Shown: positions 497 through 63,463 of the stretch, piece by piece
Numbering within the stretch: the stretch's first letter is position 1
Layout: each line of letters opens with the position of its first letter
Source: a virus
DNA length: 64,000 nucleotides
Virus record (IMG/VR): IMGVR_UViG_3300027746_000697
Coordinates: 1-64,000 of that record
Reading direction: 5' to 3' (one strand)
Program-made: the position numbers and the translations under genes
Notes under the pieces: model-generated
What the model was told of the DNA's origin: nothing
Seen by the model: only the letters and a program-made list of their open reading frames with translations
The model's database searches: none

Positions 497-536
497 GTCT
501 GTGTCCTTTCATTAACTACTACTATTTAGCTTGCTC

Positions 537-561
537 ATAAAAATAGGAACCTAAGTTCCTA
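537..561 (-). terminator. intrinsic terminator
   Basis: TAGGAAC-TTAG-GTTCCTA followed by TTTTT on the minus strand. Confidence 0.7.
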
Positions 562-605
562 CTGCTGGTTACGAGTTCCAGCCCCACTCAATCTTTGTGG
601 ACGAT

Positions 606-923
606 TTAAACTGTCTTTTGTTCTGGCTCAACAAAAGCAACTACTTCTGCACCTTGATCGTCTAATCCGCCTTCTGGAAACGGCCATGTTGCACGAGCAA
701 TATGCTCTTCTGCAACTACTTCTTCATAATCTTCATTTTCTTCTAGAGCCTGTTCAAAGTCTTCATCATCTGGTATTGATACTACTGACAACATAACTTT
801 GTCGTATGTTGATAGCTCGTCGACTAGATCTTTAACATGTTGTAAAATCTCTAAACCGTTGTATGCACCATCATCTAATTCTAAATTAACATTTAACCCG
901 TGTACTGTCATTTCAAGTTTCAT
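606..923 (-). CDS. acidic hypothetical protein
   Basis: AAGGAG SD before MKLEMTVHG; D/E-rich C-terminal half. Confidence 0.7.
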   Translation of the reverse strand: MKLEMTVHGLNVNLELDDGAYNGLEILQHVKDLVDELSTYDKVMLSVVSIPDDEDFEQALEENEDYEEVVAEEHIARATWPFPEGGLDDQGAEVVAFVEPEQKTV

Positions 924-979
924 TTTGAGCTCCTTGTGGTTAGTGTGCTTGTGGCACACAATTATTTAACGGATAATCG

Positions 980-997
980 ATTACAAAGATTTTACAG
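980..997 (-). promoter_or_regulatory. Pho-box-like direct repeat
   Basis: CTGTAAA-ATCT-TTGTAAT on the minus strand, 11-bp period, similar to CTGTCAT-N4-CTGTCAT. Confidence 0.35.
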
Positions 998-1985
998 ATA
1001 TCAAATTGTCTTTAAATATTTCCCAGGCCTTCTCCCAAGTCCAGCGGCCACTACCTTCCCAGACCTTATTGCGATTCAACATAAGTGCATCGTTGACTGC
1101 CTGTTTCAGTTCATCATTCATACAACCAGTAATGCCCTCGTCGATGACATCCTCGGGACCTTGACATGGAAATGCGGCTACCGGAGTTCCGCAGGCCATT
1201 GCTTCTATCATAACAATGCCAAATGTTTCCCATTGACTTGGGAATACAAAAACTTCGGCATTGGCATAGTAACGTGCTAGATCGATTCCGGTCTTGAAAC
1301 CTGTAAAGTGTACATCTGGGTAACGTTTTTTGTAAGTGTCAAGCATAGGTCCATCACCTACCATAATCTTTAAGTATCCCGGATAGTCAAGTTCAAAAAA
1401 CTTTTCCAGATTTTTTTCTTTGCTTACACGGCTAACACATAGCAAATATTTTGCTAGTACTGTTTCTCTAAGAGCAGGAGTAAAGATATCGCGGTCAACA
1501 CCGCGAGTCCAAGGAATAACTTCACCACTGAAGCCGTGAGCTTGTAGTTCTTCAACCATTGAATCTGTAGTTGTTAGAACCTTGCCACTATGTTTATGAA
1601 ACCAGCGTACAAAGCGCCAAGTAAAAGACTCAGGTATTCCAAAAAGTTTCTTAAGTCCTTCTGGAAACTTAGTATGATAAGCGGTATTGTGAGGAATACC
1701 AGCCAATGAAAGATATGCTCGAGCCCACAGACCAAGAGGACCCTCTGTGGCGATATGGATATAATCCGGAGATATCTCCTCAATCTTCTTGCCCAAGTTC
1801 CGCGGATAGGCAATCTTGACTTCGTTGTAGCCAGGGCAATCAATGTAGCTGAACCACCCGGGATCCAACACCACAACGTGATAACCGTCACGAACAGCAC
1901 ACGCCTCAATATTCGTGTAGGTCGTAACCACGCCATTAATCTGATCCGGCAAGTTGTCTGTTATTATCAATATCTTCTTTGTCAT
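981..1985 (-). CDS. GT4-family glycosyltransferase (Agt-like diacylglycerol glycosyltransferase)
   Basis: KILIITD..PDQINGVVTT, HIATEGPLG, YHTKFPE, SRVSKEKN, FPSQWETFGIVMIEAMACGTPV; likely start MTKKIL. Confidence 0.85.
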   Translation of the reverse strand: MTKKILIITDNLPDQINGVVTTYTNIEACAVRDGYHVVVLDPGWFSYIDCPGYNEVKIAYPRNLGKKIEEISPDYIHIATEGPLGLWARAYLSLAGIPHNTAYHTKFPEGLKKLFGIPESFTWRFVRWFHKHSGKVLTTTDSMVEELQAHGFSGEVIPWTRGVDRDIFTPALRETVLAKYLLCVSRVSKEKNLEKFFELDYPGYLKIMVGDGPMLDTYKKRYPDVHFTGFKTGIDLARYYANAEVFVFPSQWETFGIVMIEAMACGTPVAAFPCQGPEDVIDEGITGCMNDELKQAVNDALMLNRNKVWEGSGRWTWEKAWEIFKDNLISVKSL

Positions 1986-2730
1986 TCTGTTTAGTCCATG
2001 TAACAATTTCCCAGGCTCCATCATGATGTTCCACCAATGCAGTACATGACTCAACCCAGTCGCCGTCATTCATATAAGTAACGCCATCTATTTGTTTGAT
2101 TTCAGCGTGATGTATGTGTCCACATATCACACCATCATAGCCACGCTTCTTGCAATAGCCTGCTAGATTTTTTTCAAACTGAAACATAAAGTCACTGGCC
2201 TTCTTGACTCTATGCTTGAGATATTTACTAAGACTCCAATAACCAAACCCTAATTTATGACGTACCCAATTGAACTTGCTGTTCCAGTCTAACACTAGGT
2301 CATATAACTTGTCACCCAGAAATGCAAGCCAAGGAGCAAGACGAGTAATACCGTCAAATAAATCACCATGTGTAACCAAATAGTGTCGGCCATCTGCACC
2401 TATATGTTCAGTTTGATTTTGTATTTCAATGAGTCCAAACGAAAAACCATATGGTATCATTGGCCTTAAAAACTCATCGTGATTGCCTGCCACATATATG
2501 ACTCTGGTGCCACGTTTGGCATGTCCCAGTACACGTCGAACCACATTGGTATGGCTTTGTTTCCAACGCCATTTGTTTTGTTGGATTTTCCATGCATCGA
2601 TTATATCTCCTACGAGATATAGCGTGTCACAACTATTATGCTTGAGGAAGTTGTTGAGCTTGTCTGCTTGACAGTCTCTAGTGCCTAAATGTACGTCAGA
2701 AATAAAAATGCTACGATAAGTTTTCTGCAT
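1936..2730 (-). CDS. plcP: metallophosphoesterase, PlcP/LpxH2 family (phospholipase C-like)
   Basis: SDVHLG, LVGDIID, GNHDE, HGDLFD and CGHIH motifs, YMNDGDWVES; coupled to a GT4 gene as in bacterial plcP-agt loci. Confidence 0.75.
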   Translation of the reverse strand: MQKTYRSIFISDVHLGTRDCQADKLNNFLKHNSCDTLYLVGDIIDAWKIQQNKWRWKQSHTNVVRRVLGHAKRGTRVIYVAGNHDEFLRPMIPYGFSFGLIEIQNQTEHIGADGRHYLVTHGDLFDGITRLAPWLAFLGDKLYDLVLDWNSKFNWVRHKLGFGYWSLSKYLKHRVKKASDFMFQFEKNLAGYCKKRGYDGVICGHIHHAEIKQIDGVTYMNDGDWVESCTALVEHHDGAWEIVTWTKQNDKEDIDNNRQLAGSD

Positions 2731-2735
2731 AGCAG

Positions 2736-2780
2736 TATTTATCGTAGCATAGTGTTGCTAATATTGCAGTTGTATTACAA
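2736..2780 (-). promoter_or_regulatory. Pho-box-like site plus -10-like element plus late TAAATA motif upstream of plcP
   Basis: TTGTAAT-ACAA-CTGCAAT (2780-2763), TATGCT 11 nt downstream, TAAATA at 2741-2736. Confidence 0.5.
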
Positions 2781-2782
2781 AC

Positions 2783-2941
2783 TTAAATCCTAACCAATGT
2801 CCACTTAGTTGTAAATGGTTTACCTTCGGCCTTGTGTTTCAGTATCTTAGCGAACTCTTTTTTACGCAGTTCGGAAACCGTTTCTGTATCATGGTCGACG
2901 CAAGCCCTGTACAGTTTGGCTAATAGCTTTTTCTGTTTCAT
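2783..2941 (-). CDS. small basic hypothetical protein
   Basis: AGGAGG SD before MKQKKLL; late motif upstream. Confidence 0.7.
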
Positions 2942-2968
2942 GGTTGTGTCCTCCTGACAAATATTTAG

Positions 2969-2998
2969 CAAAAAAAAGCCCGCCTAAGCGAGCTCTTT
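2969..2998 (-). terminator. intrinsic terminator
   Basis: AGCTCGC-TTAG-GCGGGCT followed by a T run on the minus strand. Confidence 0.7.
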
Positions 2999-3014
2999 GA
3001 TTACACTTTAAAAA

Positions 3015-3287
3015 TTAAAGTGTGATACCCATTGCTTTGGCTTTGTAGCCTAGTGCAATGATTTCTCTGCTGGCATTGCCCATTTCGTATTCAGTAACAG
3101 TTACACCGTTACCAGCCACACGGCTACGGCTGTAAACAGCATAACCTGATTGGCGAATACGACTAGCTTCTGCGGCAATATTCTTGATACCAAAACGCTT
3201 TTCAGCTTGAGCACCAGTAACTGACTCGCCGTTGTACAATGCGTTGAACAACTTGTAGGTCTTAGTTTCTTTCGAAATGAATTTCAT
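3015..3287 (-). CDS. putative winged-HTH DNA-binding protein
   Basis: helix pattern VTGAQAEKRFGIKNIAAEASRIRQSGYAV followed by a beta wing. Confidence 0.5.
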   Translation of the reverse strand: MKFISKETKTYKLFNALYNGESVTGAQAEKRFGIKNIAAEASRIRQSGYAVYSRSRVAGNGVTVTEYEMGNASREIIALGYKAKAMGITL

Positions 3288-3357
3288 ATATTTCCTCTTT
3301 TTAAGTTTTACTAGTATTCACTAGTTAGACTTAGTATACTATATGTAAAGAGTAAAC

Positions 3358-5375: not shown

Positions 5376-6188
5376 TCACATGGCCAAATCAAACTGGATA
5401 GGATCAGCTTCTCGCACCACAGGTTTGCTGATTAATGGAGGTTTGGCAATCAACACGTTGGCTAATTGGCTACGCTCATTAACATTCTTCTGTCCTAGTA
5501 CCACAATACCATAATACTTTTTATCCTTTTCAACCAACATGACCACACAACGCCCTGCTGGATTGGTAAATCCGGTCTTACTGAGCAAAATGTTATCAAA
5601 TTTAAATATGCTAGGATTGGTATTGTGTAATTTGATATGTATTTGTTTCTTACCTTTTGGGATCAATATATCAGCAGTCTTTTCATCAGAATATGATTTA
5701 AGTGCTTCATTGTCTTTAACTGCGCCAATAAAACTAATCAATTCGGTGGCTGTGCTTACATTATTCTTACTTAGCCCGGTGGGCTCTTCGATACTGGTAT
5801 GTATTAAACCACGGCCTTTGATGTAGGCATTAGCATCCTTGATAAACTGATCAAAGCCTCCGGGGTACGTGTTAGCCAATGTTTCGGCAGCACGATTGTC
5901 ACTGCTGATCATCATGGCTTGCATTAGGTCGTGTCTAGATACCATAGCGCCATTGGGGAAACGGCCACCACTTTTACCTTTTACCTTAACCTTTTCATTT
6001 AGTTCTACACCGCTACGTAATATAGTGATAGCTGTGAACAATTTGGTAATGCTGGCGATTGGACGAACTTCGTATGTGTTAAATGACACTTGATATTCGT
6101 GTTGATCATAGTCATACAATGCATAAGCACCGTCTGCGTATGCAACAGTACTGAAAGATACAAGCAATGATAATAATATTTTTTTCAT
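5376..6188 (-). CDS. peptidase S11 D-Ala-D-Ala carboxy/endopeptidase (PBP7/PbpG-like), secreted
   Basis: signal peptide; SxxK (ASITK), SxN (SDN) and KTG motifs; TAAATA upstream. Confidence 0.9.
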   Translation of the reverse strand: MKKILLSLLVSFSTVAYADGAYALYDYDQHEYQVSFNTYEVRPIASITKLFTAITILRSGVELNEKVKVKGKSGGRFPNGAMVSRHDLMQAMMISSDNRAAETLANTYPGGFDQFIKDANAYIKGRGLIHTSIEEPTGLSKNNVSTATELISFIGAVKDNEALKSYSDEKTADILIPKGKKQIHIKLHNTNPSIFKFDNILLSKTGFTNPAGRCVVMLVEKDKKYYGIVVLGQKNVNERSQLANVLIAKPPLISKPVVREADPIQFDLAM

Positions 6189-60868: not shown

Positions 60869-60873
60869 ATTAA

Positions 60874-61107
60874 TTAAACGTAAAGGTCTATAGTGCCTAC
60901 CTTGAATATTTCCATAAGCACATGATTTTCGTGCGATCTTTTCAAATACACATCATACAAGTAATCTCTAAAATGTATTTTTTCAGTTAGTTGTTTATTA
61001 TATTCAGTCCAACGCTCTTCATTCTTTCTTGCATGAACATCGGCCAGTATGCCATCCACATTTGCATAACTTGGCTGCACAATTGGGAACCATGTGACAG
61101 CATCCAT
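60874..61107 (-). CDS. hypothetical protein
   Basis: ends GTIDLYV; coupled. Confidence 0.65.
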   Translation of the reverse strand: MDAVTWFPIVQPSYANVDGILADVHARKNEERWTEYNKQLTEKIHFRDYLYDVYLKRSHENHVLMEIFKVGTIDLYV

Positions 61108-61448
61108 TATGATTTTTCCTTGCGTTCCTTCTCTTCGGCTCTGGAATAATAATAAAGTATTTTGCCCCGCAATTCAGCTGAATCGGCTGCGCCTGTCCAT
61201 TCTGCAAGACGATTCCAAATCAACACAAGTTGTTTACTGTCACACTTGTCTCCATTTTTTGTTAACCATATTGATAGTTGCTGATGTCGTAGGCTAGGAT
61301 CATGTAATGTGTATGCAATGTTATAAAAATTAGATACTGAACATGTTTTAGTATCCGTGGCAACAACACCGCCTATGCAATCATCACAGGATTGACCTAC
61401 ACTAGACGCACCCAACAACGATAATAAAAATATTATTCGCCATTTCAT
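61107..61448 (-). CDS. secreted Cys-containing protein (antiholin-like?)
   Basis: signal peptide, four Cys, helical; ATGA-coupled to the upstream gene. Confidence 0.55.
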   Translation of the reverse strand: MKWRIIFLLSLLGASSVGQSCDDCIGGVVATDTKTCSVSNFYNIAYTLHDPSLRHQQLSIWLTKNGDKCDSKQLVLIWNRLAEWTGAADSAELRGKILYYYSRAEEKERKEKS

Positions 61449-62967: not shown

Positions 62968-63033
62968 ATGGCCCAGAAGAAAAGAACACCAATGGAACGT
63001 GCGGCTCGCCGTGCTACCAAAAAGAAACGTTGA
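62968..63033 (+). CDS. 21-aa highly basic peptide (not in ORF track)
   Basis: GGAGA SD; MAQKKRTPMERAARRATKKKR. Confidence 0.6.
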   Translation: MAQKKRTPMERAARRATKKKR

Positions 63034-63041
63034 TTTAAAAA

Positions 63042-63435
63042 TTGTTGTAATCCCTTCAAAACGAAGGCATGTTGGACGAGGGTTCGATTCCCTCCATCTC
63101 CACCAAAAAGGTTTTTAATGGATCAGTGGGACGAGTACTTTCCTCCTTTGAATTTATGGAACTATAGCCTACATTGGCAATGGTTCAATGATCCAATAGA
63201 AGAAGAAAATCTTTCTGATGGGGATGACCAGGTTTCGACAGCGTGAGATAGTAGAGACGGCAACACGATAGGCGATGGACGTAATCCAAGCAAAAACCGT
63301 AAATGCAAACGCAAATACATTTGAGTATTTCAAAGTTCCAGCTTCAGTAGCTTTTTCAGCTAATGATGCAGACTTTGCAATGGTAGCCTAAGAAACTACA
63401 ACTCCGGGGCTGGTTAGCCTTGTAAACCAATAACC
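63042..63435 (+). ncRNA. ssrA: circularly permuted (two-piece) tmRNA: acceptor piece ~63042-63105, intervening segment 63106-63219, coding piece 63220-~63435
   Basis: T-arm GAGGG-TTCGATT-CCCTC plus CATCTCC-A-CCA precedes 5' GGGGATG-ACCAGGTTTCGAC; 7-bp acceptor stem with G3.U70; tag ORF 63305-63391. Confidence 0.9.
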
Positions 63436-63463
63436 AAAAAAGGCACTTTCGAGTGCCTTTTTT
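63436..63463 (+). terminator. intrinsic terminator after tmRNA
   Basis: AAAAAAGGCAC-TTTCGA-GTGCCTTTTTT. Confidence 0.9.

Follow-up and report, generated by a model that had tools for sequence, protein, structure and literature searches.

The first 64 kb (hereafter the window) of the 116,631-bp virus record IMGVR_UViG_3300027746_000697, a fragment of a large freshwater (lake) phage, carries on its minus strand two overlapping genes, one plcP-like (1936..2730) and one agt-like (981..1985), which we assign with high confidence to the PlcP-Agt family. Judging from the enzymes they resemble, the two proteins probably convert phospholipid to glycolipid in infected cells. We lean toward an overall explanation in which the pair is a viral PlcP-Agt system of lipid renovation that releases phosphorus and is expressed as its own transcription unit. 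It would be a viral form of a known bacterial pathway, whose enzymology is well supported and whose phosphate-scavenging purpose and control by PhoB we infer.

A predicted PlcP orthologue followed by a predicted Agt

The 264-aa product of the first gene is an LpxH-fold metallophosphoesterase, predicted to be a phospholipase C. Its open reading frame (ORF) contains the motifs SDVHLG, GDIID, GNHDE, HGD, and GHIH of metallophosphoesterases, and it scores 43.5 bits with the Pfam Metallophos model, a generic family of calcineurin-like phosphoesterases. The protein is 56% identical over 241 aa (E 1e-94) to a Pseudomonas aeruginosa protein of the PA3219 type and 48.6% identical to a PlcP-type protein of Sinorhizobium meliloti. 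These reference proteins were drawn from a plasmid collection, the S. meliloti match lying on a 3.7-Mb replicon filed as plasmid pSymB. The P. aeruginosa best match is followed by a family-1 glycosyltransferase at a 4-nt overlap and then by cyaB, and its locus was assigned to PA3219/PA3218 from the species, the gene order, and the cyaB neighbor. In the published work on these genes, PA3219 is the PlcP of P. aeruginosa, with an identity of 47% to the Phaeobacter PlcP and of 46% to that of S. meliloti (PMC8528852). Since these values are no higher than the 56% and 48.6% found here, the phage protein is as close to each characterized PlcP as they are to one another.

The scores of the LpxH equivalog models are far below their thresholds: the phage protein reaches 46 bits with NF003743 (cut-off 134) and 34.8 bits with TIGR01854 (cut-off 190). 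With the former model, the PA3219-type protein scores 55 bits, the S. meliloti protein 38 bits, and two true LpxH proteins 325 bits, one of the latter coming from a genome that has a PlcP-like gene as well. The identity of the phage protein is 17-27% to LpxH and 49-58% to PlcP-type proteins, and solved LpxH chains match it at 25 bits, in the N-terminal half only. Of 301 sampled Pseudomonadota genomes, 104 gave a match. Almost all of these matches have identities of 38-58% (E 1e-49 to 1e-104), and the two at about 25% turned out to be LpxH. In the five best-matching bacterial genomes, the PlcP-like gene is the sole LpxH-family match and no LpxH scores above the cut-off; the LpxH sequences used as outgroup in a phylogenetic tree came from two other genomes. 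In this tree, LpxH stands on a long outgroup branch (100% SH-aLRT support) and the phage clade falls within the PlcP-type proteins, which include the PA3219-type and S. meliloti-type rows. The sister of the viral clade is a group made of Pelagibacter phage Mosig and two bacterial genomes.

The metal ligands D12, H14, D42, N83, H121, H205, and H207 are invariant across PlcP and LpxH (alignment A3). The PlcP-specific motifs WxWxQxH, YWSLS, and GDWVESCTAL, which have no counterpart in LpxH, are kept in the phage protein, and its lid region differs from that of LpxH in length and in sequence. We searched structures with an AlphaFold model of mean pLDDT 76, in which the lid region is poorly defined: the 25 best fold matches in the PDB are all LpxH (E ~1e-11), four orders of magnitude ahead of other phosphoesterases. 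By sequence, the first gene is a PlcP orthologue, combining an LpxH fold with PlcP sequence identity. The original prediction had named a PlcP-like enzyme, and this assignment is borne out by the equivalog scores, by the identities to the two characterized enzymes, and by the quick tree, which places the phage protein with PlcP-type proteins and apart from LpxH.

The second gene encodes a glycosyltransferase of family 4 (GT4), a predicted diacylglycerol glycosyltransferase. Its longest ORF spans 981..2069, and alignment to the relatives and to P. aeruginosa Agt1 places the start at an ATG in position 1985 (MTKKILIITD), which gives a protein of 334 aa and an overlap of 50 nt with plcP. The protein scores 56 bits with Glyco_transf_4 and 81 bits with Glycos_transf_1. 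It is 40% identical, end to end over 336 aa, to the PA3218-type Agt1 (E 3e-82), and its acidic EX7E-type motif (E-TFGIVMI-E) aligns with that of Agt1. Of the 29 best bacterial loci, 23 have an ORF 39-44% identical to the phage GT4 immediately after the plcP-like gene. In the relevant studies, PA3218 (Agt1) expressed in Escherichia coli makes monoglucosyldiacylglycerol (MGDG) and is 41% identical to the Agt of Phaeobacter (PMC8528852), the order plcP-agt is the commonest in marine isolates, and the agt of SAR11 makes MGDG and glucuronic acid diacylglycerol (GADG) in E. coli (PMC4796936). The second gene is, on these similarities, an Agt orthologue in the bacterial plcP-agt order. The sugar that it transfers may be glucose (Agt1-like) or glucuronate (Agt2-like). 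The architecture that had first been described, a metallophosphoesterase overlapping a GT4, was recovered with both ORFs, all five quoted motifs, and their Pfam matches, and the Agt-like nature of the GT4 agrees with its identity to Agt1 and with the gene order in bacteria.

Some points weigh against this assignment. The predicted phospholipase C activity rests on the 40-56% identity of the pair to characterized enzymes. The tree results from a quick IQ-TREE maximum-likelihood search on 47 rows with SH-aLRT support only. Finally, the identity of the P. aeruginosa locus was deduced from species and synteny.

A widespread viral pairing of plcP with a glycosyltransferase

The pair is of viral origin, since it lies in an IMG/VR virus record that also encodes a virion structural protein. 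At least 599 IMG/VR viral contigs carry a close PlcP relative, and at least 8000 matches were listed in the protein collection, the best 120 of them at 82-97% identity. We compared the best 80 viral loci. A GT4 lies downstream of plcP in 52 of them: it overlaps plcP by 29-50 nt in 30 loci and follows it after a gap of 18-77 nt in 16 and of 233-1025 nt in 6. There is no GT4 within at least 1200 nt downstream in 24 loci, and 4 loci are too short. Immediately after plcP, 23 of the 24 GT4-less loci encode one conserved protein of 236-246 aa; two of these proteins were scanned and matched Glycos_transf_2 at 59 and 75 bits. Altogether, of the 76 relatives whose downstream DNA extends to 1200 nt or more, 75 couple PlcP to a glycosyltransferase (52 GT4 and 23 GT2-like). 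Because the glycosyltransferase family is exchangeable across these loci, the pattern argues for PlcP and the glycosyltransferase being a functional couple. Conservation in the relatives is 85-95% for PlcP and 71-90% for the GT4. The carriers of viral plcP are diverse; among five larger related records, two encode a T4-type Gp23 capsid protein.

Homologues are also present in the cultured phages Mosig and S-SRM01, at identities of 50% (Mosig) and 36%. In Pelagibacter phage Mosig, the plcP homologue is head to head with a pstS-type gene (“putative phosphate ABC transporter”). The 8.7-kb locus has 16 TTAAC pentamers, 5 of which fall in the 153-nt spacer between the two divergent genes (L001 3842-3991), with one pair separated by 11 nt. 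The source annotations label the viral relatives as UDP-2,3-diacylglucosamine pyrophosphatase LpxH. Along the same lines, table 2 of a Lake Baikal viral metatranscriptome gives lpxH as a viral auxiliary gene under lipopolysaccharide (LPS) biosynthesis (PMC9611531). A literature search that left subscription journals and supplements outside returned no paper describing a phage-encoded plcP, and the papers naming both plcP and phage concern, in their accessible text, host lipids and phage attachment. This is consistent with the original prediction, to which no description of PlcP-Agt as a phage system was known.

A promoter-like motif within a covarying hairpin at the plcP start

The hexamer TAAATA (2736..2741, minus strand), a recurrent promoter-like motif, stands 5 nt before the plcP ATG. 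The 116-kb record has 111 TAAATA in all, and in 18 ORFs of 50 aa or more the ATG comes 3-8 nt after one of them, where about 0.5 ORFs would be expected by chance (arithmetic from these counts). No hexamer is more frequent in this position (16 of 182 crude genes), those of the Shine-Dalgarno type ranking next. Genes for a virion structural protein and for a PAAR protein belong to the class. Further TAAATA sites in the window include those at 6188, 15646, 18940, 25032, 25077, 29496, 31720, 43458, and 59311. Among the relatives of plcP, TAAATA is found 4-6 nt before the ATG in the 17 sequences of the hairpin type (alignment A1), and also before that of L005, L006, L038, L044, L053, L068, Mosig (5 nt), and L004. 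We infer that TAAATA, which resembles the T4 late consensus, is the phage's promoter element, with transcripts starting at or beside the AUG. The class as a whole suggests leaderless transcripts from a phage-specific promoter, the other genes having normal Shine-Dalgarno sites. A role of TAAATA as a ribosome-binding signal was rejected: the motif has no anti-Shine-Dalgarno complementarity, and other genes use AGGAGG-type sites.

The motif is enclosed in a covarying hairpin followed by a U-run (2700..2750, minus strand), which is terminator-like or able to sequester the start codon. The 12-nt arms (2750-2739 and 2719-2708) also enclose an inner 4-bp helix and the AUG; the 3' arm corresponds to plcP codons 5-9, and the U-run comes after it at 2707-2700. 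Across 17 related sequences, 99.5% of the cells are paired and 5 of the 12 pairs show compensatory changes, values that none of 500 shuffles reaches; controls in which the positions were slid give 19-57% paired. The RNA fold of the 96-nt stretch 2695-2790 has an energy of -21.9 kcal/mol (z = -3.9). In the relatives L005 and L044, another hairpin occupies this position, and its 3' arm contains the AUG. A consensus promoter and terminator scan with a loop limit of 8 nt did not report the hairpin, and its promoter-like matches were no more frequent than in shuffles.

This layout has a parallel in phage T4. There, the long early transcripts of e, soc, and I-TevI fold into a hairpin that masks the translation start, which is freed by use of a late promoter located within that hairpin. 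Here too, a promoter-like motif near the T4 late consensus lies inside a conserved hairpin enclosing the start codon. The phage plcP differs from the T4 genes in lacking a Shine-Dalgarno site and in the closeness of the motif to the ATG, which would make the transcript leaderless, and its hairpin, being followed by a U-run, may terminate transcription.

A conserved and phased direct repeat upstream of plcP

Directly after the stop codon of a 52-aa ORF lies the Pho-box-like direct repeat TTGTAAT-ACAA-CTGCAAT (2763..2780, minus strand), with a period of 11 bp, which by its conservation, rarity, and phasing is a candidate site for a tandem-binding regulator. Its two 7-bp halves are separated by 4 bp, and 11 nt further on stands TATGCT (2746..2751, minus strand), a sigma-70 -10-like hexamer located within the 5' arm of the hairpin. 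The repeat, TATGCT, and TAAATA, named in the original prediction, were thus all found upstream of plcP (2780-2763, 2751-2746, and 2741-2736). The strict repeat pattern occurs 3 times in the whole record, compared with 0.37 +/- 0.55 times in 30 shuffles, and 0-3 times in each of five related records. With only 3-5 occurrences per record, the box was rejected as a general phage promoter class.

A Pho box consensus, CTGTCAT-N4-CTGTCAT, is given in a bacterial study (PMC8528852). The two half-sites of the phage match CTGTCAT at 5/7 and 5/7 positions. Phage half-sites are TGTAAY or TGCAAY, and bacterial plcP genes have TGTCAY-type repeats at the matching place. To count the box, 75 relatives could be classified: 31 that have 25 nt or more of spacer ahead of plcP and 44 operonic. 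A two-repeat box is present at -50 or -39 in 15 of the 31 spacer-bearing relatives (13 of 26 distinct sequences), and several others have one good and one degenerate half-site. In 28 distinct sequences, the spacer from box to TAAATA is 10 nt (1 sequence), 11 nt (6), 21 nt (20), or 22 nt (1). Within the range of 5-35 nt these are the only lengths seen, and many of the 21-nt spacers represent a single homologous site. Lengths of 10-11 and 21-22 nt amount to one or two helical turns, as would be expected if a bound protein touched the polymerase.

The box is also found elsewhere. A protein of 143-147 aa with a weak match to the C-terminal domain of malonyl-CoA decarboxylase (MCD; 26.6 bits) is encoded in L128 (1501-1995; record G305) and L130 (record G304). 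In these two phage records, the MCD-like gene is preceded by a box that an 11- or 21-nt spacer separates from TAAATA. The third strict copy of the repeat in the record (61303-61319, plus strand) is in a 576-nt gap without long ORFs (60869-61444). It is followed after 11 nt by TAGATA and a small hairpin, and no ORF or known RNA was found downstream of it.

Which protein could read this site? Host PhoB control of plcP-agt through the candidate box is a tentative reading, to which we give clearly less than an even chance. The repeat is conserved, rare, and phased like a Pho box, and to that extent the original prediction stood. Conservation in related phages, which it had proposed as a check, holds for about half of the spacer-bearing relatives and fails for the operonic ones, in which plcP abuts the upstream ORF and the box is present in 0 of 44. 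Several other observations weigh against PhoB. A search for pstS (PF12849) gave no match in this record (116 kb) and none in five related ones (130-266 kb), and neither a phoA-type gene nor a response regulator was found in the 116-kb fragment. The box also precedes other targets, namely the small MCD-like gene, an acidic protein gene, and a structured RNA. Moreover, PhoB works with a sigma-70 -10 element, and TAAATA is a poor one; a mechanism based on PhoB and sigma-70 would need TATGCT, which in the relatives changes together with the opposite arm of the hairpin. Predicted Pho boxes were also poor predictors of PhoB binding in a study of cyanophage S-PM2d (PMC10976474). With no pstS found in the six records, no box in 44 of 75 relatives, and boxes before genes of no known link to phosphorus, PhoB stays a candidate regulator.

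A real contender, if still short of an even chance, is that the repeat binds another regulator, either phage-encoded or a host protein of the OmpR family other than PhoB, with a small regulon made of plcP-agt, the RNA, the acidic protein, and the MCD-like gene. The fixed spacing between box and TAAATA recurs at about nine independent site types (our own count from the 28 distinct sequences and the second repeat of the window), several of which precede an RNA or genes without a known link to phosphorus. The TGTAAY/TGCAAY half-sites differ from the bacterial TGTCAY, and TAAATA is unlike the sigma-70 -10 element. Yet no gene with a Trans_reg_C (winged-helix) domain was found in the 116-kb fragment, which represents ~32% of the genome, Pho-box-like repeats occupy the same place in bacterial plcP genes, and both the geometry and the half-sites are closest to the published Pho box consensus (PMC8528852).

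A possible mechanism and its purpose

In the mechanism that we propose, PlcP, as a two-metal phosphoesterase, would cleave host glycerophospholipids into diacylglycerol and a phospho-head group, and Agt would transfer a sugar from a UDP-sugar onto diacylglycerol to give a phosphorus-free glycolipid of the MGDG or GADG type; both steps are deduced from orthology. The bilayer would be kept while lipid phosphorus is released, and phosphatases could recover phosphate from the head groups, feeding the synthesis of a genome of ~360 kb. The plcP-agt pair would be its own transcription unit, with TAAATA 5 nt before the ATG giving a leaderless or nearly leaderless mRNA. The hairpin and the U-run would stop or mask read-through from the upstream 52-aa gene, and the pair would then be expressed only from its own, box-modulated promoter. 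The phased direct repeat would bind a tandem-site regulator, for which host PhoB is the leading candidate.

Whether the benefit to the phage is phosphorus is, in our judgment, evenly balanced. Two points speak against it. The product of PlcP is phospho-head groups, not phosphate, and no dedicated phosphatase is linked to the pair. In addition, TAAATA precedes virion genes, and plcP may be expressed with that class whatever the phosphorus supply. The fullest version of the proposal seems unlikely to hold in all its parts: a clade of freshwater phages would have a small host-sensing regulon, in which a box read by PhoB and TAAATA drive a leaderless plcP-agt and a two-hairpin RNA, the plcP promoter nested in a hairpin bars read-through, and membrane phosphorus is mined only upon a starvation signal of the host.

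It is possible, if rather improbable, that the same enzymes serve the mechanics of the envelope and not the supply of phosphorus, with expression following the TAAATA class and not phosphate sensing. They could, for instance, block superinfection, adjust membrane charge or fluidity for assembly or for the timing of lysis, or supply diacylglycerol. The sharing of TAAATA before the ATG with 17 other ORFs, including the virion structural protein and the PAAR protein, would fit this idea, as would the 44 of 75 relatives without a box and the presence of a lipid-tailoring gene, a fatty-acid desaturase, in the same record (record positions 65780-66526). Host lipid remodeling is also reported to affect phage attachment, in the accessible text of two studies (PMC9938194 and PMC9804370). 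Against this, the bacterial pathway is a phosphate-starvation response (PMC4796936 and PMC8528852), the Mosig homologue adjoins a pstS-type gene, and the conserved, phased repeat resembles a Pho box. Far less tenable than any other reading, and close to refuted, is that of a first gene encoding an LpxH-type enzyme of lipid A with a glycosyltransferase acting on LPS: the source annotations, the closest PDB folds, and the tabling of lpxH as a viral auxiliary gene under LPS (PMC9611531) point that way, but the model scores (46 bits, against a cut-off of 134 and 325 bits for true LpxH), the much lower identity to LpxH (17-27%) than to PlcP-type proteins (49-58%), the different lid, the five best-matching bacterial genomes that keep the gene without an LpxH over the cut-off, and the orthology of the glycosyltransferase to a diacylglycerol glycosyltransferase all contradict it.

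Neighboring elements and the source record

The 52-aa ORF upstream of plcP (2783..2941, minus strand) encodes a conserved basic protein without a Pfam match. By tblastn, 23 of the 80 relatives have it upstream of plcP, and 2 other, weak matches fall beyond the plcP start. The ORF is preceded by a strong Shine-Dalgarno site and by a TAAATA of its own (2966-2961), which closely follows a terminator (2969-2992). On the other side of the pair, the original prediction had noted a second Pho-like repeat at 980-997, which was confirmed: CTGTAAA-ATCT-TTGTAAT (997-980) is followed after 11 nt by TAAATA (968-963), and the whole (963..997, minus strand) is promoter-like for the next gene. This repeat overlaps the stop codon of the glycosyltransferase. 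Of the relatives, only L056 and L073 share it, and they also share the gene that comes next. That gene (606..926, minus strand) encodes an acidic protein of 106 aa with no Pfam match.

Beyond this gene lies a conserved two-hairpin RNA motif (601-564) with an intrinsic terminator (560-536), spanning together 536..601 on the minus strand. Its two hairpins stand side by side, each with a 5-bp stem and a conserved 9-nt loop, and in most cases an intrinsic terminator comes after them. Among 14 sequences, 8 of the 10 pairs show compensatory changes. In four relatives, it has its own box and TAAATA promoter and no ORF. Its sites include L068 3197-3247, L072 3188-3238, L063 3689-3739, L044 1908-1958, and L053 3734-3784; it is downstream of agt in L006, L007, L011, L012, L047, and L071 and after the acidic-protein gene in L056 and L073. 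A scan of six related loci gave no Rfam match to the motif at E <= 1, and the window gave none at gathering scores. The motif may represent a small RNA that shares its regulation with plcP-agt.

The record has an estimated CheckV completeness of 32%, which puts the genome at ~360 kb. The G+C content is ~41%. The window encodes, in addition to the virion structural protein, endolysin-like genes, a PAAR protein, a ribonucleotide reductase, an exonuclease, and DnaK; nearly all ORFs from base 1 to ~11.8 kb are on the minus strand. Between 76 and 108 kb, the record includes a rubrerythrin gene, nine genes with an Asp/Arg-hydroxylase domain, two further metallophosphoesterases, and seven radical-SAM genes, two of them with a SPASM domain. 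A phage-borne permuted transfer-messenger RNA (tmRNA) of the betaproteobacterial type lies at 62980-63463 (plus strand; RF01850 at 120 bits and RF04321 at 134 bits), and the relatives L006 and L007 have a tmRNA too. The type of this tmRNA is a possible clue to the host, and the only hint that we have. A megablast of positions 900-2900 against 50,697 phage records gave no match. A scan of species genomes gave a single one, L004, a 2.6-kb contig binned in a Competibacteraceae metagenome-assembled genome. With its small acidic ORF, its TAAATA ahead of the ATG, and its grouping with the viral clade in the tree, this contig looks phage-derived and is probably mis-binned, and we set it aside as a clue to the host.

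Parts of the region 600-3300 are shared by 18 sequencing runs, 14 of which are on record as RNA, with a best share of words of 0.24. Four of these runs were aligned to the region, the material being assembled contigs without strand or end information. Contigs from a lake-water RNA library (run X1) match exactly at 2241-2434, 2747-2950, and 2970-3300, and a contig from another (run X2) matches 1738-1971 with 1 difference. These contigs show presence in an RNA library and are no proof of transcription, since DNA carry-over is possible. In the single run X1, the gap between two of the pieces (2951-2969) coincides with the junction of the terminator and TAAATA, which is a faint hint.

Relation to known systems and implications

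Among the closest known systems is that of P. aeruginosa, where PA3219-PA3218 form an operon of the same two families, in the same order and with overlapping genes, at 56% and 40% identity; there too a direct-repeat box precedes plcP (PMC8528852). The phage copy differs in being virus-encoded, in its half-sites (TGTAAY/TGCAAY and not TGTCAY), in its overlap of 50 nt instead of 4 nt, in the promoter-like TAAATA next to the ATG inside a covarying hairpin, and in having no known Agt2 partner. Similarly, Phaeobacter MED193, SAR11 HTCC7211, and S. meliloti have plcP, a downstream glycosyltransferase, and a predicted Pho box, which is the commonest arrangement in bacteria. These systems are cellular and were shown by mutants and lipidomics to act under phosphorus starvation (PMC4796936), whereas the phage pair is known from its sequence. 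With LpxH, the phage protein shares the calcineurin-like fold with a helical lid and the metal ligands; it differs in falling below both equivalog cut-offs, in an identity of only ~17-27%, and in its lid.

Two phage systems are worth comparing. The pstS and phoA genes of cyanophages, associated with host PhoBR, are likewise phage genes of host origin with a possible gain of phosphorus and a candidate PhoB site. Cyanophage phosphate-stress genes are reportedly driven by the host PhoBR, a result said to be that of Zeng and Chisholm in 2012. The pair described here would instead target the membrane lipids of the host and not external phosphate, and the cyanobacterial Pho box motif is different. 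The second is Mosig_00120 of Pelagibacter phage Mosig EXVC030M, phage-encoded like the gene of the window, 50% identical to it, and with TAAATA 5 nt before its ATG. It groups with the sister branch of the viral clade and is annotated as “putative UDP-2,3-diacylglucosamine hydrolase.” In contrast with our pair, it has no following glycosyltransferase and is divergent from a pstS-type gene. The Mosig genome announcement makes no mention of diacylglucosamine, phosphate, lipid, or auxiliary.

These observations could have several implications. For the study of phage gene expression, three features deserve attention in their own right: the promoter-in-hairpin layout, the class of genes with TAAATA next to the ATG, and the new RNA motif. 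Viral plcP is widespread and routinely labeled LpxH, which means that surveys of viral genes file it under the wrong pathway. A cultured system for viral plcP does exist, in Pelagibacter phage Mosig. Finally, the known phosphorus auxiliary genes of phages act on uptake (pstS and phoA), and a viral PlcP-Agt would add to these an internal route, in which host membrane phospholipids are turned into glycolipids and their phosphorus is released. A bacterial cell has roughly ten million or more lipid phosphorus atoms. This pool is of the same order as tens of copies of a 360-kb genome and would thus be large enough to matter to the phage.

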